Below are positions 880-58,593 of a DNA stretch of 64,000 nucleotides, piece by piece. The notes beneath the pieces are model-generated. The model was given only the letters and a program-made list of their open reading frames with translations. It ran no database searches and was not told the DNA's origin. This DNA comes from Candidatus Binatia bacterium. Its GTDB lineage: Bacteria; Desulfobacterota; Binatia; UBA9968; JAJDTQ01. The stretch spans positions 856 to 64,855 of the forward strand of contig JAJEAI010000041.1 in assembly GCA_022824205.1 (NCBI GenBank), read 5' to 3'. The position numbers were made by a program, and so were the translations under genes. How positions within the stretch are numbered: position 1 is the stretch's first letter; each line of letters starts with the position of its first letter.

Positions 880-3198
880 TCAAGCGATGACGGGCAAGGG
901 GTTCAAGTCGGCTTCGGCGAGAGGGTGCTCGCGGCGGCCCATGCGCACCGGTACATCGTAAAGGCGCCCGGGTGCGAACCGCGCCCAGAAATGGCGCATG
1001 CCCGGCACCATCACCCGCACCACCGGCATGCCGATGTCGGGCCGGGTCTGGTCCAGCACCAGGAACTCCATCCCCCGGGCTTCCACCAGCCCGCGGCAAA
1101 CCTCCACGTCGGCGCGCGCGTCGGGCGATTCGATCATCGCATAGCTCGACGCCTTGCGCGCGGGAACGCCGTCCGCGGGGGCCAGCCAGGAGCAGTCGGC
1201 CACTCGCGCCGTCCGCCACCACCAGAGAGCCAGCGGGTCATCGATCATGGGCCGGCCCTCGCCGCTCCCGGGACGCGGCAGCCAGGTGAGGCACTGGTTC
1301 AATTCGCAGACCGCTCGCAGCGCCGCGATGCGCGGGTCGGCGTGGGCGCCGGCGCCGTAAATGATGTCCTCGGTCTTCGCTTCCGGCCTGCGTGACAGCG
1401 CCACGAACGCGGGAACACCGATATCCGAGGTGACGTCGAGCATCCACAAGTCCCGCTCGTAACGGGCGTAATGGTCCGCGGCCGTCGCGAGGTACGCGTC
1501 GTCGAAGCTCGCGAGATCCACCGCGGGCACCCGCAGGCGGTTGTACCACCAGATGGCGAACGCATCGCGTTCGGCCAGCTCATAGAAGCCCTGCACGATG
1601 GCCTCTTCCAGCGTATTGCCCGCCGCGCAGCCATTGGAGTCGGCGATCAGGTCCGAGGCGCCGCGCTGTTCGGCCGGCATGCTGTAGAGCATGGACGTCG
1701 GCAGATGGCGATGGCACTGCCGCGTCAGCGACCACACCGGGGTCCAGTCGATTTCGGCGTCCGGGTCGAGACGCGGCGGCACCACGTTGTAGGGATGGCC
1801 GCGCGCGTTGATGCTCTCCGCGTTGTCGAGCTGATGGTCGCTGAAGAGCTGCACGTCGTTGGGATGGATCGCCTCTCCTCCCCCGGCCAGCTCGGAGAAG
1901 CGTTTGCGGACGCGGATCTCGTCGCCGTGAAAGGCGCCCGAATAGCGCTCCACCGCCTCGCACAGCGCGCTGACCTCGGACTGTTCGCGCGTGCTGCCCT
2001 TGCCCGCGCTCTTGCTGCGCAGGCTGCGCCTGAGCGAGGTCAGGCTCCGGCTTCTCATGCCGAGGTTGCTCCCGGCCCAATGGACATGCAGCCAGGTGTC
2101 GGCCTCGCCGGTGGTGCGCGAAAGCCAGGTCACGACACCGCTGATCCGGCTCACCAGGTGGCGGTACTTCGCCAGGGTGACCTCCGGCGCCACGGTGTGC
2201 GCGCCGCCGCTGTTGCGGTGGACCTTGGGACTCGCCTTCAGACGCAACGGCACCGGCGGTCGATCCGGTCGATACAACGCCTCGTCGCCGCAGGCCGGGC
2301 ACTGCGGACGGCGCATCACCCGATGCCGCGAACTCGCGAAGGTGCCGACATCCATCGCGATGGCGTGTTGGTGAATCGGCGCGGCCTCATCCAGCACCAG
2401 CCATTTGACGATCTCCGCCGCCATCAGCCCGTAGAGCGCATCCAGCACCGCGGGCTGCGCCGCGAACGGCTTGAAGGCAGCCTCGTCGCCGGCAACGTTG
2501 CGCAGAAAACCGTGGACCTCCTGATGGTTGCGCAAGCGGTACGCCAGACAGTCCCAGCAAGGTCCCTGTCTGTCCGCGCGAAAGACGGGACCGAACAGCG
2601 CCTCCATGCCCCGCGGCCGCACCAGCGTCCACGGCGTCCTCGCCTCGAGCCGGCGCCGGTTCACTGCCCCAAGGTGTGCGTCGAGATAATCGTCGCAGAC
2701 GACGACGGTGAGCCCGGCATCGCCGGATCCGACACGGGCGCCGCTCTCTTCCAGACGGCGGGTCAGCCGGCCGCCGTCACCCTCCACCGCGACGCGCGTT
2801 TCCGCCAGCTCTTGTTCGACCCGGCGCGGCGACGCGCCGAGCGAAGACCAGTAGGCCGCCCGGCCCCGGTCCATGCCATGGTCGGCGGACACGACATAGC
2901 CCTTGGCGGAGAGCCCGGCCACGGCCGCGAGAACGTCGGCTCCGGCATGGGCGCCGTGAAGGGCCGCGACGATCCCGTCCAGGGCTTGCCGGCCGTCGAG
3001 CAGCGGCAGCAGATCGCGGTACAGCTTGCCGTGCAGCAGAGTGTTGAACGTCTCGGAAACCAGCAGCGTCTGCCGGTCGCCGACCTCGTGGAATTGCAAG
3101 TGCGGCGCAAGCGCGGGGAGCTTGACGAGCCCCTCATCCTCGGGAGTCGTCTTGATCAGGATTCCGCGCCGGGAATTCACGTCCGTCTGGGTCGGCAT
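880..3198 (-). CDS. Fused E1-like (ThiF/MoeB-like, with N-terminal RRE) / YcaO-domain cyclodehydratase, PatD/TruD-like azoline-forming heterocyclase for RiPP biosynthesis
   Basis: 772 aa. YcaO hallmark SAGKGSTREQSEVSALCEAVERYSGAF and a C-terminal proline motif LNPLPVIA. The N-terminal half has an E1-like region (LTVVVCDDYLD, PCWDCLAYRLRNHQE with Cys pairs) and a leading wHTH-like segment (HLQFHEVGDRQTLLVSETFNTLL) typical of a RiPP recognition element. The architecture matches fused C-D heterocyclases. Confidence 0.8.
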   Translation of the reverse strand: MPTQTDVNSRRGILIKTTPEDEGLVKLPALAPHLQFHEVGDRQTLLVSETFNTLLHGKLYRDLLPLLDGRQALDGIVAALHGAHAGADVLAAVAGLSAKGYVVSADHGMDRGRAAYWSSLGASPRRVEQELAETRVAVEGDGGRLTRRLEESGARVGSGDAGLTVVVCDDYLDAHLGAVNRRRLEARTPWTLVRPRGMEALFGPVFRADRQGPCWDCLAYRLRNHQEVHGFLRNVAGDEAAFKPFAAQPAVLDALYGLMAAEIVKWLVLDEAAPIHQHAIAMDVGTFASSRHRVMRRPQCPACGDEALYRPDRPPVPLRLKASPKVHRNSGGAHTVAPEVTLAKYRHLVSRISGVVTWLSRTTGEADTWLHVHWAGSNLGMRSRSLTSLRRSLRSKSAGKGSTREQSEVSALCEAVERYSGAFHGDEIRVRKRFSELAGGGEAIHPNDVQLFSDHQLDNAESINARGHPYNVVPPRLDPDAEIDWTPVWSLTRQCHRHLPTSMLYSMPAEQRGASDLIADSNGCAAGNTLEEAIVQGFYELAERDAFAIWWYNRLRVPAVDLASFDDAYLATAADHYARYERDLWMLDVTSDIGVPAFVALSRRPEAKTEDIIYGAGAHADPRIAALRAVCELNQCLTWLPRPGSGEGRPMIDDPLALWWWRTARVADCSWLAPADGVPARKASSYAMIESPDARADVEVCRGLVEARGMEFLVLDQTRPDIGMPVVRVMVPGMRHFWARFAPGRLYDVPVRMGRREHPLAEADLNPLPVIA

Positions 3199-3295: not shown

Positions 3296-3323
3296 CGTCA
3301 TTCCCGCGAAAGCGGGAATGACG
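3296..3323. repeat. REP-like perfect palindrome cgtcattcccgc-gaaa-gcgggaatgacg (12-bp stem, GAAA loop); single-unit copy of the window's dispersed repeat family
   Basis: Perfect inverted repeat seen directly. Same core as the copies at 8648, 56265 and 58387. It lies in the 150-nt gap between the AlkB-fusion stop and the YcaO start. Confidence 0.8.
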
Positions 3324-3350: not shown

Positions 3351-5747
3351 TCACGCGCGGGAAAGGAGCGTATCGATCTCGGCCGCGGCGCGGGACGCGG
3401 TTTCGGTGACCGCCGTCTTCAGCGCGTCGAAGTCCTCATGCCCGCAGGCGCTCGCCACAAGGGACTGGACCTTCGGCCCCGCCGCGGCCGCGTCAAAGCC
3501 CTCCCCGCCCACAAGGTGCGTGATGCCCTGCAAATCGCGCCACAGAGACGCGGCTTGCGCCAGCGGCTCCGCGCCCGCGCCGTGAAGCAGCGCGGCTGCG
3601 GTCGGGGCCGGATGGTCGAGGGCCGCAGCGCCGTTCGTCAACTGCAGGAAGCGCGCGGTCCGCTCCACGTCATCCAGTCCGCCGCGCATGAGGGCGTACG
3701 TGGACACGCCGGGTTCGGCGGCGGCTTGCCGTCGCTCGCGCGGCCGGCCCGTCAGCGACTCGCTCCCATCCCATCCGGCCAGGACTTCGCGCCGTGCTTC
3801 ATCGAAGCGGCGGCCGATGTCGGAGTCGCCGCACTCGAACACGCAGCGCGCCCGGGTGAGCGGGGGGATTCCGCCGGAAGCAGGCCTTCCGCCATGCTCG
3901 GCCAACTCGGCAAGGGGCAGATCCGGAAGGGGATTGGCGTCGGGCGTGATGGGCGAGAACAACAGGCTGTCCCGCGCCAGGTCGGTGAGGGTCTCACGGA
4001 AACCGCGGCACAGGCGTTCATGTTCGCCACCCATCCCGCCGTCATGGACGAACATCATGCCGACGGCAACGCCGGGATGAACCTCCCGGCTGGCGAGATC
4101 GCCCAGGAATATCGCGGCGACCCCGCCCCCGCCCAAGGGTCCGAAGCGCTCGACCACGTCCGCCGCCACGGCGCCGAGCAGGGTCGCGATCGACGCTTCG
4201 GCGAGACTGGACAGCGCGGACTTCGCCTCGGCCGGCGACAGGTTTCCGCGCACCACGTGCATGGCGACCTGAAAGGCCTTGTCGTTGGACCAGTTGCGCA
4301 CGATCTCCGCGCTTTCCCTTGCGTCCGCCGTGGGGATTTCGGCGATCAGGTCCTTCATCTCGGGGACGCCCATTTCGACCGTCCAATAGAGTCGCGCAAG
4401 CCCGCGGCGCGCGATCGCCTCGGATTCGCGATCCGGCCCGAATCCCTTCGGCAAGTCAAGATCGGTGAACTCCCGGTCCTGCAAGCTGTCCAGAAGCTCC
4501 GGATTGCGTTCGATCCATTTGGCGAGGCGCGGGGCGGCGCCGTAGATTTCGACGATGGCCTCGAAGGCTTCCGGCCGCGCCGCGGAGATCGGGCTGTCGT
4601 AGGCGCTCCAGTCATCGATCTCCGGGTAGAAATGCGCGCGCCATTGATCCACCAACGGATCCATCTTCTCGAACCAGCGCCTGGGCCGCAGCACGATGTT
4701 CATCATGTCGGCGTAGGTGCCCGGCAACACCGGCGCTTCATCCGCGCCGCGGACCTGGAGCAGCGGGTAGTGGCGAGCCGCCGCCGCATGATGATCCGCA
4801 TGGCGCTGCATGTTGAAGAACATCCAGTTGCTGTACTTCCAGTCCGCGTTCCAGGAATGGCGCGGCATCACTTTTTCCCAACGGCCGTTGGACTGACGCA
4901 CCCGGCGCAGACCGTAGTGCTGGAAGTAGTTGCTGATCTTCATGGAAAAGACGCAACTCAGGCCGAGGAAGACGAAGACCAGCACCGCCAGGATACCGCT
5001 CATCCACCACACCAGCCCATACCAGAACAATAGAGCGAGCCCGTAGCGCCAGAACTGATTGCTGTAATGCCACCGCGGCAGCCCGCGCCGCGCCAGTCGC
5101 TCGCCGGCGAATTCCCAGGAGTTGGTGACGTTGCTGACGATCTCCCTGGGGAAATAGCGCCAGAAACTCTCACCCTTCGGAGCGGACCCCACGTCGAGCG
5201 GCGTGCCCACCTTGGCGTGGTGGATGTAGACATGCTCCGTGGAGTATTGCGGATACGAGGCCGAGGCCAGCAGGAATTCTCCGAGCCGCCGTTCCCAGGC
5301 GGAGCGCCGGTGGACCAGTTCGTGACCGACCACGAAGACAGCCTGCGCTTCCATGGTCAGGAGGCTCGCCAGGATCACGGCTTCCCAGACCGCGAACTGA
5401 TTCGCGACAAGGATCTGCCACATGCCGAGAATCAGCACCGGCGGCCACAGAAACGCCCAGGTCCAGACCGGCAGATTGTGCCAGACCAGCCGGCGTTCCG
5501 GCGTGTTCTCCGGGTCCATGTTGCGGCCGTCGGGACCGAGCGCCCGATCAAGCGGCCCCACGACGCTCATGAAGAGGAATGGCGGCAACAGCCACCAGCC
5601 GCCATACATCGCGGCGGCAAGAAGCAGAGGGAAAATGCCCAGTGGCAGGTAGTGCGGCAGGGCGTTACGAATCGAGGGCTCGATCCTCCGCGTGACGTCA
5701 GCCTTGTCCGGGCTCAAGCCACCACCTGCGGCTGCATCCTGCGGCAT
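3351..5747 (-). CDS. AlkB-type integral-membrane alkane 1-monooxygenase / fatty-acid-desaturase-family hydroxylase fused to a C-terminal GlnE-like (adenylyltransferase-type) nucleotidyltransferase-like domain, possibly catalytically degenerate
   Basis: 798 aa. The N-terminal ~390 aa has His boxes HELVHRRS, EHVYIHH and NMQRHADHHA, and an AlkB-like C-terminal tail LPGTYADMMNIVLRPRRWFEKMDPLVDQW. The C-terminal ~400 aa contains ERFGPLGGGGVAAIFLGDLASREVHPGVAVGMMFVHDGG, which resembles the GlnE/GlnD NTase motif (G-K-L-G-G-R-E...S-D-x-D-L) but has AVG where the metal-binding D-x-D should be. It is one frame with no internal stop. Confidence 0.6.
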   Translation of the reverse strand: MPQDAAAGGGLSPDKADVTRRIEPSIRNALPHYLPLGIFPLLLAAAMYGGWWLLPPFLFMSVVGPLDRALGPDGRNMDPENTPERRLVWHNLPVWTWAFLWPPVLILGMWQILVANQFAVWEAVILASLLTMEAQAVFVVGHELVHRRSAWERRLGEFLLASASYPQYSTEHVYIHHAKVGTPLDVGSAPKGESFWRYFPREIVSNVTNSWEFAGERLARRGLPRWHYSNQFWRYGLALLFWYGLVWWMSGILAVLVFVFLGLSCVFSMKISNYFQHYGLRRVRQSNGRWEKVMPRHSWNADWKYSNWMFFNMQRHADHHAAAARHYPLLQVRGADEAPVLPGTYADMMNIVLRPRRWFEKMDPLVDQWRAHFYPEIDDWSAYDSPISAARPEAFEAIVEIYGAAPRLAKWIERNPELLDSLQDREFTDLDLPKGFGPDRESEAIARRGLARLYWTVEMGVPEMKDLIAEIPTADARESAEIVRNWSNDKAFQVAMHVVRGNLSPAEAKSALSSLAEASIATLLGAVAADVVERFGPLGGGGVAAIFLGDLASREVHPGVAVGMMFVHDGGMGGEHERLCRGFRETLTDLARDSLLFSPITPDANPLPDLPLAELAEHGGRPASGGIPPLTRARCVFECGDSDIGRRFDEARREVLAGWDGSESLTGRPRERRQAAAEPGVSTYALMRGGLDDVERTARFLQLTNGAAALDHPAPTAAALLHGAGAEPLAQAASLWRDLQGITHLVGGEGFDAAAAGPKVQSLVASACGHEDFDALKTAVTETASRAAAEIDTLLSRA

Positions 5748-5900
5748 AGCGGACCATACCCCCCCGGTAACGGTCCGATTTTATCACCGGGTACCGTAAC
5801 CCACAAACACGTCAAGCCCCCAAGGTGCACGACAAGAAGATGGTGAGAGGGGCAGAGGTGAAGGAGGGCACGCCGGGGTCGGTGTCCCGTGTTCAAGTTC

Positions 5901-6647
5901 TCACGGCATCACCATCCCGCCGTTCACGTGCAGGGTGGCGCCGGTGACGTAGTCGCTCTCGTCGCAGGCGAGAAAGAAGATGCCGTCGGCGATCTCCTCG
6001 GGCATGGCGGCACGGCCCATGGGGAGGCCGCCGGAGAGCTTCGCCCACTCGTCTTCGTCGTACTTGCCGCGCACGCGGTCGGTGCCGGTGAGACCGGGGG
6101 CGATGGTGTTGACGCGGATGCCGTGGGGCGCCAGCTCGCTGGCCAGGGACTTGGAGAAGGCGATGACGGCGGCCTTGGAGGCGGCGTAGTGAGTGCGCTC
6201 GCCGCCGCCGGTGACGCCGAAGTTGGAGGCGGTGTTGACGATGACGCCGTGGCCGGCCTGCTTCATGGGGGCGATGACCGCCTGAGAGCAGAGGAAGGTG
6301 GTCTTGAGGTTCAGGTCCAGGCACTCCTTCCATTGAGCGGGGGTCACGTCCTGGATCGCGCCCTTGTGGAAGGTGCCGCCGGCGAGGTTCACGAGGACGT
6401 CGATGCGGCCGCAGGCAGACAGGATGCGCTCGAAAGCGGCGGTCACCTCCGACTTGTCGGTCAGGTCCGCCTGGATGAAGCGGCCTTCCACCTGCTTCGT
6501 TTCGAGGAGGGACGCGGTGGCCGCGCCGGCTTCGGCGTCCCGGTCGAGGATGACGGGCGCGTAGCCCTCTTCGCTGAAACGGAGCACCGCGGCGCGGCCG
6601 ATGCCCCTGGCGCCTCCGGTGACGACAACCACTTTCGCATCCATCAT
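5901..6647 (-). CDS. SDR-family short-chain dehydrogenase/reductase (FabG-like)
   Basis: VVVTGGARGIGRA glycine-rich NAD(P)-binding motif and catalytic YAASKAAV (YxxxK). 248 aa. Confidence 0.85.
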   Translation of the reverse strand: MMDAKVVVVTGGARGIGRAAVLRFSEEGYAPVILDRDAEAGAATASLLETKQVEGRFIQADLTDKSEVTAAFERILSACGRIDVLVNLAGGTFHKGAIQDVTPAQWKECLDLNLKTTFLCSQAVIAPMKQAGHGVIVNTASNFGVTGGGERTHYAASKAAVIAFSKSLASELAPHGIRVNTIAPGLTGTDRVRGKYDEDEWAKLSGGLPMGRAAMPEEIADGIFFLACDESDYVTGATLHVNGGMVMP

Positions 6648-6747
6648 AAGTCCTTTGTTCCGTGAAAACCCCGGCCGGCAAGGTTACCCGCGCTCATCAG
6701 GGGTTCCCTTGGCCACCGGGCGGTCCTCCAACGCCTCGTTCACGACG

Positions 6748-7497
6748 TTACTGCATGATCGCGCCACCATTGACCACCACGGTCTGCCCGGTGACGAACC
6801 GGCCCCGGTCGCTGGCGAGGAAGACCGCCGCCTTGGCCATGTCGCGCGGCTGTCCGATGCGGCCAAGGGGAATCCGGGCGGCGCTGGCGTACAACTCCTC
6901 TTCCGTGCGGTGACCGCGGGGCTGGGCGGTGTCGGACACGCCGGGGCAGATGCAGTTGACGGCGATGCCGGCGGGGGCCAGCTCCAGGGCGAGGCTCTTG
7001 GTGAAGCCGATGATGCCGCCCTTGGAGGCGGCGTAATGGGCGCCGTTGTCCGCCCCCTGGAGCCCCCGGCCGGAGGTGATGCTGATGATGCGCCCGCTCC
7101 GCTGTGCCAGCATGTGCGGCGTCACGGCGCGGCTGCACAGGAACGTCCCGAACAGGTTGGTGCCGATGACCCGTTCCCACTCGTCCTCGGCCATGTCCTC
7201 CACCGTGCTGGTGGGGTAGATGCCGGCGTTGTTGACCAGGATGTCGACCTTGCCGAAGCGGCCGAGGCAGGCTTCCACCATGGTGTCCACGGAGGCGTCG
7301 CGGGAGACGTCGGTGGCGTGGGCGAGAGCGGTGCCGCCGGCCTCCTCGATCCGGCGTTGTACCCTGGCGGCGGTGTCTTCGCGCAACTCCGCCACCACGA
7401 CGTTCGCGCCCTCTTCCGCCATGACCAGGGCGATGGCCTCGCCGATCCCCTGCCCGCTTCCGGTGACAATGGCCGTGCGGCCTTCGAGTCTGCGCAT
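6748..7497 (-). CDS. SDR-family short-chain dehydrogenase/reductase
   Basis: Start re-derived to MRRLEGRTAIVTGSGQGIGEA (ATG at 7497); YAASKGGI catalytic motif. 249 aa. The track ORF 6748..7728 carries a spurious N-terminal extension. Confidence 0.85.
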   Translation of the reverse strand: MRRLEGRTAIVTGSGQGIGEAIALVMAEEGANVVVAELREDTAARVQRRIEEAGGTALAHATDVSRDASVDTMVEACLGRFGKVDILVNNAGIYPTSTVEDMAEDEWERVIGTNLFGTFLCSRAVTPHMLAQRSGRIISITSGRGLQGADNGAHYAASKGGIIGFTKSLALELAPAGIAVNCICPGVSDTAQPRGHRTEEELYASAARIPLGRIGQPRDMAKAAVFLASDRGRFVTGQTVVVNGGAIMQ

Positions 7498-7761
7498 GAG
7501 GATGCTATTTAGAACCTTCCAGCCGCGTTGGCAACATGGCCCCACCTCGCCCCCTCCTGGATACCCGCTTCGGACGGGGTCGAGGGCAAGCCTGCGCGGG
7601 AATGACGGAAGGAAGAGCGGGAATTGACGGAGGAGAGCACCGTCACGACCGGGGAGCGCGCGGCAACGGCCGGGAGAAGAACGCGGAAGCGGCCGAGGAG
7701 AAAGCGCGGGAGGGACCGGAGGAGGCACCGGGACGATGTTTCACCGAGGAGACAGGACAGC

Positions 7762-8647: not shown

Positions 8648-8915
8648 CGTCATTCCCGCGAAAGCGGGAATCCAGGTGGGGTGGGGCGGGGAAACGCCGC
8701 TGCGGCGCCCCGCCACCACCCCTGGATTCCCGCTTTCGCGGGAATGACGGATTCGCGTTTAGTCGCCAGGAAGCAGCGTATTGACACAGCCTGTTCCGCG
8801 GGAATGTCGTTCTGTTACCTAGTTGCGTGTTACGTAGTTGCGCTGTGAATCTGACACAGCCTGTTTCGTGGGAATGGCATGATTTATACTCGGTCGCATC
8901 GAGGTGGGAATGACG
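8648..8915. repeat. REP/MITE-like repeat cluster: ~100-bp nested inverted repeat (8648-8749) plus 'tgacacagcc...ccgcgggaatg' modules (8781-8808, 8850-8881, 8903-8915)
   Basis: cgtcattcccgcgaaagcgggaatccagg ... cctggattcccgctttcgcgggaatgacg enclose a GC-rich inner hairpin (ggggtggggcgggg / ccccgccaccacccc). Track ORFs 8588..8848 and 8628..9044 are just translations of these repeats (SRESGNPGG, IPAKAG peptides). Confidence 0.8.
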
Positions 8916-16401: not shown

Positions 16402-16589
16402 GGTAGTCACTTCTCCCCCTGTACCGCATATCGATACCCCGCCAACGTCCATCAAGCCAAGACCCCGCCGTTTCGCCCGTTGGCGCAACCGGCGCTCTCC
16501 CCTCTCCTGTCGGAGGAGTACGCCGACGAGGAAGGTAGCCCTCAACACATTTGCCATTCCCCAACCCGTGGCATAAGGTCTGGCCGTTC

Positions 16590-18383: not shown

Positions 18384-18617
18384 ATGCCCGTGGTCAACGT
18401 CGATCAAGCCAAGACCCAACTCTCCCGCCTGTTGGCGCAGGTCGAGGCGGGCGAGGAAGTGGTTATCACGCGCCAGGGTGAACCCGTCGCGCGACTTGTC
18501 CGCTACAAGCGGCCGGGCAAGCGGCAATCCGGCACCCCGGAGGGGCGAATCGTCGTGGACGACAGCATCCTCGATCCTCTCCCGGAGGATGAGTTGAAGT
18601 TGTGGGAAGGTGGTTAG
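18384..18617 (+). CDS. Phd/YefM-type (VapB-like) antitoxin
   Basis: MPVVNVDQAKTQLSRLLAQVEAGEEVVITRQGEPVARLV...IVVDDSILDPLPEDELKLWEG matches prevent-host-death-family antitoxins usually paired with VapC. No PIN gene follows. Confidence 0.8.
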   Translation: MPVVNVDQAKTQLSRLLAQVEAGEEVVITRQGEPVARLVRYKRPGKRQSGTPEGRIVVDDSILDPLPEDELKLWEGG

Positions 18618-18668: not shown

Positions 18669-18986
18669 ATGACCCCGCTCGAAATCGTATTCGCCGCGGC
18701 GTCCCTGGCACTTCAGACCGTCGCCGTTGGGGCCATCTTCTACGGCATCGGCCAAATGCGCCGGGCCGGAGACCAACGCGAGAAGCGCGAGGATGCCCGG
18801 CACTCCGAAACCATGGAAGCGCTACGCCAGCAGGGCGAAGTGCTCCAGGCACTTGTCCGGGGTATTGAACAGCAAGGCGAAGCTCTCCGGCAGCAAGCCG
18901 AAGCACTCAAACAGCAAGGCGAAGCGCTCCGGCAACAGGGCGAAGCGCTCAAGATCGTAATCGAGAGAACCGCCGCCCCGGCCTAG
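18669..18986 (+). CDS. Small membrane-anchored coiled-coil protein with tandem heptad repeats
   Basis: N-terminal hydrophobic helix (IVFAAASLALQTVAVGAIFYGIG), then QQGEVLQALVRGIEQQGEALRQQAEALKQQGEALRQQGEALK, encoded by four or five 21-bp tandem DNA repeats (cagcaaggcgaagcKctccgg). Purine-rich RBS. Confidence 0.6.
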   Translation: MTPLEIVFAAASLALQTVAVGAIFYGIGQMRRAGDQREKREDARHSETMEALRQQGEVLQALVRGIEQQGEALRQQAEALKQQGEALRQQGEALKIVIERTAAPA

Positions 18987-27786: not shown

Positions 27787-28530
27787 CTATTGCGCCTGCC
27801 AGGTCCGGCAGCCTTCGGTCGGGTCCGGTTCGTGCCGCGGCGCCAGCCGCGCGGCGATGGCCTCGCGGACGCGCTCCATCTGCCCGCGTGAACGGTCGTC
27901 CTGGGACCCGGCGGCCATCGCTTCGCCGATGTGGACCTCCACCTGGCCCGACCGGAGGCGCCAATCGCCCCGCGGCATCAGGACGCCCGACCCGCTCACG
28001 GTGATGGGGACAATCGGCACGCCCGCCTTCTCGGCCAGGCGGAAGCCGCCGCGCTTGAAGGGCAGCAGCCGGCCGTCCGTGCTGCGGGTGCCCTCGGGAA
28101 ACACCACCAAGGAGATTCCCCGCCCGAGCTTGTCACGCGCGCTGTCCATCGCCGCCACCATGTCCTTGGAACGGGTGCGCTTGACCAGCACGTGCTTGGA
28201 CGCCCACAGGGCCCAACCGAAGAACGGCACGCGCAGCAACTCGCGCTTCGCCATCCAGCGCAACTGGATCGGTGCCAGCGCCTGCACCAGCACCGGAATG
28301 TCGATGTTGCTCTGGTGGTTGGCCATGAAGACGTAAGCGCGCGCCGGGTCCAGATCCCCGCTCCGGCGCACCCGCACCGCCACGCCGCCGGTCTTGAGAA
28401 TGCACCAGGACCAGAAACGGAAGAACGGATAGACGCGCCTGCCGTAGGGGTCGGCGAGTCCGATGACAATGATGGGAATGCTCTCCAGAAGGCTTATGCA
28501 GAGGATCAGGGCCAGCTTGAGCGTGTACAT
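27787..28530 (-). CDS. plsC: 1-acyl-sn-glycerol-3-phosphate acyltransferase
   Basis: NHQSNIDIPV (HxxxxD acyltransferase motif) and VFPEGTRS motif. Confidence 0.8.
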   Translation of the reverse strand: MYTLKLALILCISLLESIPIIVIGLADPYGRRVYPFFRFWSWCILKTGGVAVRVRRSGDLDPARAYVFMANHQSNIDIPVLVQALAPIQLRWMAKRELLRVPFFGWALWASKHVLVKRTRSKDMVAAMDSARDKLGRGISLVVFPEGTRSTDGRLLPFKRGGFRLAEKAGVPIVPITVSGSGVLMPRGDWRLRSGQVEVHIGEAMAAGSQDDRSRGQMERVREAIAARLAPRHEPDPTEGCRTWQAQ

Positions 28531-39883: not shown

Positions 39884-39959
<76 letters not shown>

Positions 39960-52093: not shown

Positions 52094-52579
52094 TCAACAA
52101 CCACCGGAGAGTCCTTCCTTCACCCATCGCGCGAGAGCCTTCTCCGGGTCCGCGATCTCTTCCACCGAGGCGTACCAGTAGGCCTCCCAGCCGGACCGCG
52201 GAAGACCGGTGAAGAGCATCAGGTTCAGCGGATACACCTCGCTGTCGGTGCAGCGCCTGAAGTCGTCCCGGAAGAGGAAAACCGGCTTCTCCCAGGCGAT
52301 GGCCATGCCCAGCTCCACCATGACGCCCTCGTCCGGGGGACAGCCGTTGACCACCGCGAACAGGCCGTCCGCTTCGCGCACGTCCCGGAGATCGGCCTGC
52401 CCCACGCGGTACGCCCAGCCGGCCTCCGCCGTGTCCACCTGGTTGTTGCGCGCGAACGGCTCCCACACCTCCACTCCCAGCGCTTCCAGCGCCGCCGTCA
52501 GCACCGCCAGCGGCCCCTCCCGCTGCTGCGCCGAGAAGCCGTAGGGATTGGCCAGGTAAAGGGTCTTCGTGGAAGCCAT
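52094..52579 (-). CDS. Nucleoside 2-deoxyribosyltransferase-family protein
   Basis: MASTKTLYLANPYGFS...VNGCPPDEGVMVELGMAIAWEKPVFLF. Start moved to ATG 52579. Confidence 0.6.
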   Translation of the reverse strand: MASTKTLYLANPYGFSAQQREGPLAVLTAALEALGVEVWEPFARNNQVDTAEAGWAYRVGQADLRDVREADGLFAVVNGCPPDEGVMVELGMAIAWEKPVFLFRDDFRRCTDSEVYPLNLMLFTGLPRSGWEAYWYASVEEIADPEKALARWVKEGLSGGC

Positions 52580-56102: not shown

Positions 56103-56135
56103 CCGGAAAGCCCAAGGCAACGGCGCCCCCTCCCC

Positions 56136-56388
56136 GTCATTCCCACGAAACCGGCTGTGTCAAAACACTATCTGAGAGAGGCAACAACCCACCGAAACGT
56201 CATTGATATGAAAATAAATCTTGTTCAATGATTTTTGGTAGTTATGGAATCCCGCTACACCCCACCGAGTCATTCCCGCGGAAGCGGGAATCCAGGCGGG
56301 GTGGGGCCGGGCAATGAGGTCGCCACACCCCCACCCCTGGATTCCCGCCCCCGATCGGGGTCGGGGGCAAGCTTCCGCGGGAATGACG
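56136..56388. repeat. REP/MITE-like repeat cluster with a 45-bp AT-rich insert
   Basis: gtcattcccacgaaaccggctgtgtcaa (56136-56163); the AT-rich segment cattgatatgaaaataaatcttgttcaatgatttttggtagttatgg (56199-56245); and the nested IR gtcattcccgcggaagcgggaatccagg...cctggattcccgcc...ccgcgggaatgacg (56270-56388). Confidence 0.8.
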
Positions 56389-58268: not shown

Positions 58269-58330
58269 GTCATTGTCCTCCATTGGAAGTAACCGCTCGT
58301 CCACACACTCCGGGCGAAACCCTACGAATA

Positions 58331-58554
58331 CGTCATTCCCGCTTTCCAGGCTGTGTCAATACTCATGTGGCACGGATCCCTCGAATCGTCATTCCCGCGG
58401 AAGCGGGAATCCAGGCGGGGTGAGGCGGGGGAATACGCCGTTTTGCCCCTCTCCGCCCCTGGATTCCCGCTTCCGCGGGAATGACGATTCGGGGTGTTGG
58501 TGCCAGTTCTTGTCCACGTGACGTTTGACACAGCCCCTTCCGCGGGAATGACGT
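58331..58554. repeat. REP/MITE-like repeat cluster between tal and tkt
   Basis: cgtcattcccgctttccaggctgtgtcaa (58331-58359), the nested ~100-bp IR (58387-58486), and gtttgacacagccccttccgcgggaatgacg (58524-58554). Confidence 0.8.
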
Positions 58555-58593
58555 ACTCTTCGTGTTGGCACCCCCGACGCGACCCTTCCCCGA

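Follow-up and report, generated by a model that had tools for sequence, protein, structure and literature searches.

The spacer between an ABC ATPase gene and xth in the window (the whole 64-kb stretch of DNA analysed here) contains a long nested palindrome, X, followed by two copies of a shorter module, Y, and a lone half-site. Related elements lie at further intergenic sites (Table 1). The first-pass annotation had reported one composite element at four loci (3296-3323, 8648-8915, 56136-56388, and 58331-58554). All four proved to be as described, and a fifth locus, a degenerate relic at 7542-7632, was added. In total the window contains six complete hairpins, one expanded hairpin, and approximately 15 half-sites of a single motif family, distributed over five intergenic loci with none inside genes. 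Their placement between genes, as annotated earlier, was borne out by Pfam domains and by the genes called on the source contig, which together defined the context of each copy. Spurious open reading frames do cross the elements, as had also been claimed, with SFPRKRES and IPAFAGMT among the resulting peptides. The DNA comes from a metagenome scaffold (KELL22-1 scaffold_315 in ENA, 110.8 kb), and the counts given here are those of the window. The window and the ENA copy differed by two bases in the approximately 28 kb compared (T/A at 8807 and T/C at 52373); the first of these falls in a Y module, where the ENA copy has CGTCATT and the T of the window changes this to CGACATT.

Table 1. Elements of the motif family in the window, with the gene context given at the first feature of each locus.
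Feature	Position	Strand	Composition	Gene context
Solo hairpin	3296-3323	.	CGTCATTCCCGC-GAAA-GCGGGAATGACG; 12-13 bp stem, GAAA loop	desaturase-fusion (3' end) / solo / YcaO (start), both genes on the minus strand
Degenerate relic	7542-7632	-	right half of expanded-loop X plus decayed half-site AGCGGGAATTGACG	spacer, with promoter region, between divergent SDR (start 7545, -) and ABC ATPase (start 7762, +)
X left arm	8648-8675	+	exact NTS consensus CGTCATTCCCGCGMAVGCGGGAATCYRG (NTS and SRM regex)	ABC ATPase / X-Y-Y / xth
X core	8676-8721	.	GC-rich, own hairpin GGTGGGGTGGGGCGGGG...CCCCGCCACCACCCC
X right arm	8722-8749	-	exact NTS, convergent to left arm
Module Y	8781-8809	-	NTS 5' half CGACATTCCCGCGG fused to AACAGGCTGTGTCAA
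Second Y, more decayed	8851-8879	-
Lone NTS 5' half-site	8903-8915	-	GGTGGGAATGACG on the plus strand; 17 nt upstream of the xth start codon
Module Y	56135-56166	+	CGTCATTCCCACGAAACCGGCTGTGTCAAAAC	CarboxypepD_reg-like protein -> Y-Z-X <- rpe
Module Z, AT-rich	56188-56259	+	CCCACCGAAACGTCATT + ~42 AT-rich nt + GGAATCCCGC
X left arm	56268-56295	+	NTS with 2 mismatches (AGTC..., loop GGAA)
X right arm, expanded	56337-56388	-	NTS hairpin with ~24-nt nested insertion TTGCCCCCGACCCCGATCGGGGGC
Module Y	58331-58362	+	outer left arm of Y-X-Y palindrome, tkt-tal spacer	tkt / Y-X-Y / tal, minus strand
X left arm	58387-58414	+	NTS with 1 mismatch (loop GGAA for MAV)
X right arm	58459-58486	-	NTS with 1 mismatch, convergent to left arm
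Module Y	58525-58553	-	outer right arm of Y-X-Y palindrome

The motif is that of the Neisseria Transformation Sequence (NTS), a 28-nt sequence, CGTCATTCCCGCGMAVGCGGGAATCYRG, which encloses the dRS3 repeat ATTCCC-N8-GGGAAT. A degenerate Ssn-related motif (SRM) has been defined as well, membership being set at no more than one mismatch to CGTCATTCCCGCGMAVGCGGGAATCYRG (Chenal et al., Nat Commun 2025, PMC11893778). The arms of X in the window contain the dRS3 core, and when compared with the full NTS two were exact, two had one mismatch, and one (56268-56295) had two. By direct reading, the solo hairpin has three mismatches to the NTS consensus, located at the CYRG tail.

A search of the window with ATTCCCGCGNNNGCGGGAAT, allowing up to two mismatches, gave 12 strand-hits, equivalent to six hairpins, where shuffled sequences predict 0.01. 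The half-site CGCGGGAATGACG was matched 18 times against 5.6 expected, a number reached by none of 100 shuffles. The core of module Y, TGACACAGCC, was not diagnostic by itself: the 7 matches in the window were not significantly above the 4.25 expected, and the core became specific only once joined to the CGTCATTCCC half. Six hairpins per window would correspond to a few hundred in an assumed 4-Mb genome; this extrapolation is only a guess, because the copies bunch at both ends of the window.

In a repeat search, X was a near-perfect palindrome of approximately 102-138 nt with arms of 45-58 nt, and the X palindromes were 86-91% self-complementary. Folded as single-stranded DNA, X reached -66 kcal/mol (z = -13). 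The inverted repeats and this fold uphold the earlier description of X as a nested palindrome, and the minimal form at 3296-3323 was likewise confirmed (-17.2 kcal/mol as single-stranded DNA, z = -8). The Y-X-Y block in the tkt-tal spacer (58324-58561) forms a single palindrome of approximately 240 nt, and the segment 58318-58566 folds at -96 kcal/mol (z = -13). The relic at 7542-7632 is 71% identical to 56323-56388 and no longer folds (z = +2). The core of X was conserved within this lineage only; completely different cores were found in other phyla.

The oriented flanks of the palindrome, CGTC on the 5' side and a C directly 3', were present in all six X arms examined. Neither the solo hairpin (3296-3323) nor the Y modules have these flanks with the 3' C, and we therefore regard both as derivatives rather than bona fide NTS. 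The solo hairpin consists of the outer halves of two X arms joined together, which is the product that recombination between both dRS3 palindromes would leave. Module Y consists of the NTS 5' half followed by RAANNGGCTGTGTCAA, and a 5-bp remnant of the stem can still be seen in a metagenome contig (L151). Among the sequences compared, Y was confined to this lineage: a degenerate Y pattern matched 27 metagenome stretches, all of which look like chance except L151 and possibly L145. Module Z starts with an upstream extension plus CGTCATT, has an AT-rich middle, and ends with GGAATCCCGC; it recurs beside X in two relatives (L124, 1650-1715, and the ABC-xth spacer of L277).

One further variant, the expanded-loop subfamily, has a nested insertion of approximately 24 nt (TTGCCCYCGACCCCGATCGGGGGC), itself a small hairpin, in the loop of one NTS. 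Arms of this kind were found in the window (56340-56385 and 7560-7607), in L151 (518-662), in L037 (1640-1690), and in L277 (10800-10860). The recurrence of this variant across several loci and several genomes implies that an already modified element was copied. Outside the window, the same X/Y family was found only in L037 (a MAG labelled Gemmatimonadetes), L151, and close relatives. NCBI MAGs that carry the label 'Deltaproteobacteria bacterium' encode proteins at least 90% identical to those of the window, so the taxonomic label is uncertain.

The window also holds repeats of other kinds. Tandem 21-nt (7-codon) repeats, AACAGCAAGGCGAAGC(N)CTC-like, lie at 18868-18951 in an open reading frame at approximately 18669-18986, and are probably a repetitive low-complexity protein segment. 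A 45-nt direct repeat (16443-16487 and 18395-18439, 82% identical and 1.95 kb apart) may indicate where paralogous small genes begin. The neighbors of the solo hairpin, both on the minus strand, encode two unusual fusion proteins by Pfam: a YcaO cyclodehydratase that begins with a winged-helix domain (880-3198), and a fatty-acid desaturase joined to a nucleotidyltransferase region resembling GlnE (3351-5747).

The position of the elements could be explained if they acted at the RNA level, as terminators, attenuators, or mRNA-stabilizing 3' structures. Copies lie at the 3' ends of genes and in one spacer between cistrons, and their structures would be very stable as RNA too. Several results weigh against this reading. 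No T-run follows any of the hairpins, and terminator-like sites were not more frequent than in shuffled sequences; in the window scans, both the promoter and the terminator features of the modules were at chance level. The copies occur in both orientations, and none reached the Rfam threshold. In relatives, tkt and tal overlap and function without the element, and the Neisseria (Nm) SsnA, the enzyme introduced below, showed no RNA binding (PMC11893778). An RNA-level role is thus quite improbable as the explanation of these repeats.

No NTS hairpin was called as an intrinsic terminator, and the number of terminator calls matched the shuffled expectation. At the gathering threshold, Rfam found nothing but a tRNA in the window, and at a relaxed setting it gave sub-threshold matches only, chiefly to long-hairpin miRNA-precursor models. 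ARAGORN and Rfam agree on a tRNA-Ala(GGC) at 39884-39959. A 96-nt tRNA-Ala(TGC) called by ARAGORN at 28202-28297 on the minus strand has no Rfam support, lies inside high-GC3 open reading frames, and is probably a false positive.

The distribution of the motif was examined by scanning one genome per species with the 22-mer TCATTCCCGCGRAAGCGGGAAT. It was found in at least 119 genome stretches, labelled as approximately 15 or more phylum-level groups; the labels among the matches listed include Proteobacteria, Chloroflexota, CPR groups, Bacteroidota, Planctomycetota, Acidobacteriota, Gemmatimonadota, Nitrospirota, Verrucomicrobiota, and others. The chance expectation, estimated from the size of the collection with uniform composition assumed, was approximately 0.1 match, and a lineage-specific REP therefore cannot explain the motif. 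The same 22-mer was present in at least 120 viral or prophage contigs of IMG/VR (L156-L275).

The sequences surrounding the 22-mer were also constrained. Among the matches listed, 130 of the 149 genome hits had YG before the motif and at least 129 of 149 had C after it. SsnA binding depends on this C more than on any other base (PMC11893778). An inverted partner hairpin lay within 260 nt of 79 of the 147 genome hits listed, with a median spacer of 32 nt, compared with 4.7% for random windows of the same loci. The stems of the partners (67 distinct sequences) were 95% paired and showed compensatory changes at six of eight pairs, a level reached in 0 of 500 shuffles. The compensatory stem pairs were ATTCCCGC/GCGGGAAT, ACCCCCGC/GCGGGGGT, ATCCCCGC/GCGGGGAT, GTCCCCGC/GCGGGGAC, and ATGCCCGC/GCGGGCAT.

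The enzyme known to act on NTS hairpins is SsnA, a single-domain GIY-YIG nuclease (cd10448) of 94 aa, which binds the hairpin as single-stranded DNA only and in one orientation only, and cuts a few nucleotides upstream of it; strand-specific cleavage is known for the Neisseria and Wolbachia enzymes only (PMC11893778). In many phyla the ssnA genes are flanked by the motif, and 19% of SRM-rich genomes have no ssnA (PMC11893778). Among 278 listed NTS-bearing loci (approximately 2.2 Mb), an iterative profile search identified seven SsnA-like open reading frames of 89-109 aa from their start codons. All four representatives scanned matched Pfam GIY-YIG (PF01541). Six of the seven were SRM-flanked, typically in the arrangement NTS-> gene <-NTS. 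X has the geometry of NTS-> ssnA <-NTS, except that a short core replaces the gene. Three of the SsnA-like open reading frames lie in IMG/VR contigs (L184, 3045-3335; L191, 5294-5580; L238, 10050-10331). The 64-kb window, the 6.7 kb of contig next to it, and approximately 80 kb from relatives yielded no SsnA-like open reading frame; the adjoining 6.7 kb contained one decayed half-site (L123, 1831-1850).

The first-pass annotation had called the elements REP/MITE-like and had proposed a REP-associated tyrosine transposase (RAYT) or an IS200-like enzyme as their partner. The first description is correct insofar as the elements are nested palindromes, dispersed and extragenic, that form mosaic clusters where genes end and thereby resemble BIMEs, and it is these properties that a classical REP/BIME family mobilized by RAYT would account for. 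The GTAG-type tetranucleotide that stands at the head of the palindrome in classical REPs was absent, the head being (C/T)GTCATT in 130 of 149 listed cross-phylum copies. A jackhmmer search seeded with E. coli RayT, which is sensitive to RayT-like sequences only, found no RAYT-like open reading frame in the window or in the same 278 listed loci, as against the seven SsnA-like ones. Because the arms are NTS, whose demonstrated partner is SsnA, a RAYT partner is unsupported, and we consider classical REP/BIME mobilization the least probable of the explanations weighed here, to the point of being nearly negligible.

Comparison with close relatives revealed that homologous sites are empty or differently filled, and because of this the repeats behave like DNA that moves or recombines. 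GCA_964519455.1 is 93-96% identical to the window in tkt, tal, and rpe; its tkt overlaps tal (ATGA) and the site is empty, whereas 326 nt separate the two genes in the window contig. The transketolase C-terminus is ...ARRRT in this relative and ...ARADRSV in the window, where tal still has a GGAGGA ribosome-binding site. On the 3' side of rpe the same relative has 12 nt, compared with approximately 290 nt of X-Z-Y in the window contig. Three relatives at approximately 87% identity have the tight arrangement too. The ABC-xth spacer is 375 nt in the window, 18 nt and empty in a 3.96-Mb relative (86%), and 166 nt in GCA_022820735.1 (92%), where it holds another member of the family, an expanded-loop half-X plus Z. 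In GCA_964519455.1 an unrelated gene is followed by a Y-Y-X-Z-Y cluster, whose X-Z part closely resembles the 56-kb cluster of the window. Judged from these alignments, the filled and empty sites together with the shared subfamily indicate recent copying or exchange, with recent gain or loss. Deletion in the relatives, or gain of the whole spacer by homologous recombination, are possible alternatives.

Target-site duplications, which the first-pass annotation had suggested looking for, were not discernible at any of three filled/empty comparisons, nor was a precise boundary, and the inserts are bordered by additional sequence that does not belong to the family. This result bears on a reading of the elements as MITEs derived from DDE-type insertion sequences or, alternatively, as targets of an IS110/Piv-type recombinase, as dRS3 is for the Neisseria Nf phages. 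Terminal inverted repeats and presence/absence polymorphism are what such elements would display, and dRS3 has been cited as a phage recombinase target (PMC11893778). Besides the lack of discernible duplications, the arms are kept across phyla while the cores are unrelated between genomes, ssnA is the only gene repeatedly bracketed by the arms, and no transposase lies beside any copy in the window. We therefore regard either version of this reading as highly improbable.

A further explanation is that the elements are orphan relics of a past NTS-ssnA-NTS invasion, after which the nuclease was lost and the repeats could only decay and recombine. Such a history would agree with the lack of ssnA in approximately 70 kb of contig, with the many degenerate copies (7542-7632, the Y copies, and 8903-8915), and with relatives at approximately 86-87% identity, in which no family copies were found in 12-21 kb. 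Yet several arms are perfect or one mismatch off, the X palindromes retain the self-complementarity given above, and the differing occupancy of relatives that are 92-96% identical speaks for recent activity. The relic reading is unlikely, although less so than the three other rivals.

Between two SDR genes (window approximately 5900-6750), relatives have toxin-antitoxin pairs and the window contig has none. The pairs, HigB/HTH and RelE/HTH, differ by relative (L276, 8078-8657; L277, 7821-8505), and the SDR neighborhood is therefore a general hot spot for small mobile cassettes.

Taken as a whole, the explanation we favor is that these elements are members of the NTS/SRM family of hairpin repeats, with the mechanism proposed below; we give this reading a probability of roughly three in four. 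Points against it are that no SsnA-like open reading frame turned up in the sequence searched from this lineage, that the solo hairpin and Y lack the 3' C on which SsnA binding depends in Neisseria, and that the three filled/empty comparisons showed neither a clean duplication nor a sharp boundary. The repeat family itself is known, and what is new is the lineage, together with its own modules Y and Z.

The mechanism that we propose for the favored reading has the following steps. When the DNA is single-stranded, as in replication, repair, or incoming DNA, each 28-nt arm would fold into an 8-bp hairpin with CGTC on its 5' side and C on its 3' side, a step based on the fold and on the stem covariation computed here. 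An SsnA-type enzyme would then bind the hairpin and nick its strand a few nucleotides to the 5' side, as has been shown for the Neisseria and Wolbachia enzymes (PMC11893778). X would be a gene-less, non-autonomous derivative of an NTS-> ssnA <-NTS cassette; it has this appearance because it carries one NTS per strand, in convergent orientation, as around ssnA. Copying into intergenic spacers and recombination between copies would spread the elements and produce the mosaic clusters of X, Y, Z, and solo forms, a step for which the filled and empty sites and the propagated subfamilies were observed and the mechanism itself is presumed. If the genome encodes the nuclease at all, the gene would lie somewhere outside the window.

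To our knowledge, SsnA has never been shown to mobilize NTS elements. GIY-YIG-based transposition has been raised as a hypothesis only (PMC11893778). That X and Y-X-Y are non-autonomous elements excised and inserted via single-stranded DNA by an SsnA-type GIY-YIG nuclease is a tentative proposal, and we think it rather more doubtful than probable. If it were true, it would constitute a GIY-YIG transposition system parallel to IS200/RAYT and mechanistically distinct from it, and the filled and empty sites at 92-96% identity, with the propagated subfamilies, would be its first genomic footprints.

The lineage offers a natural experiment, in which close relatives differ at defined intergenic sites. 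One insertion split the overlapping tkt-tal pair and rewrote the last residues of transketolase, and such filled/empty pairs can reveal whether NTS elements move, at which sites they land, and at what cost. The spurious open reading frames that arise from the repeats pollute the annotation of MAGs in many phyla.

Of the known systems, NTS/SRM with SsnA is similar in its identical 28-nt sequence, hairpin, and oriented flanks, in its repeats, which in the window are likewise extragenic and clustered, and in its occurrence in many phyla (PMC11893778). The motif-bracketed ssnA genes of that system were reproduced here in other genomes. It differs in that the approximately 70 kb of sequence examined from this organism has no ssnA and in that the lineage is uncultured, being represented only by MAGs labelled Deltaproteobacteria or Gemmatimonadetes. 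The long nested palindromes with Y, Z, and expanded-loop arms found here are undescribed in the available part of that paper (PMC11893778).

The dRS3/NIME repeats of Neisseria have the same core, inverted dRS3 copies that bracket short units, and mosaic intergenic arrays. The differences are in host phylum and GC content, in internal units that are unrelated to the Neisseria RS units, and in the loop, which is GAAA or GGAA here and commonly GCAG in Neisseria dRS3. Enterobacterial BIMEs, like the NIMEs, are comparable to the mosaic clusters of X, Y, Z, and solo forms. The REP/BIME and RAYT systems of E. coli and Pseudomonas likewise combine a single-stranded hairpin repeat with a small nuclease-type enzyme and a repeat-flanked gene, form mosaic clusters at gene ends, and are thought to represent a domesticated transposon; in contrast, the enzyme here would be of the GIY-YIG rather than the HUH/Y1 type, and neither a GTAG head nor a RAYT was found. 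MITEs such as the Correia elements are also short, non-autonomous palindromes with terminal inverted repeats and insertion polymorphism. The elements described here differ from them in showing no discernible target-site duplication, in a core that varies by genome, and in arms conserved across phyla, and the only candidate for a MITE-type parent is the NTS-ssnA-NTS cassette seen in other genomes.
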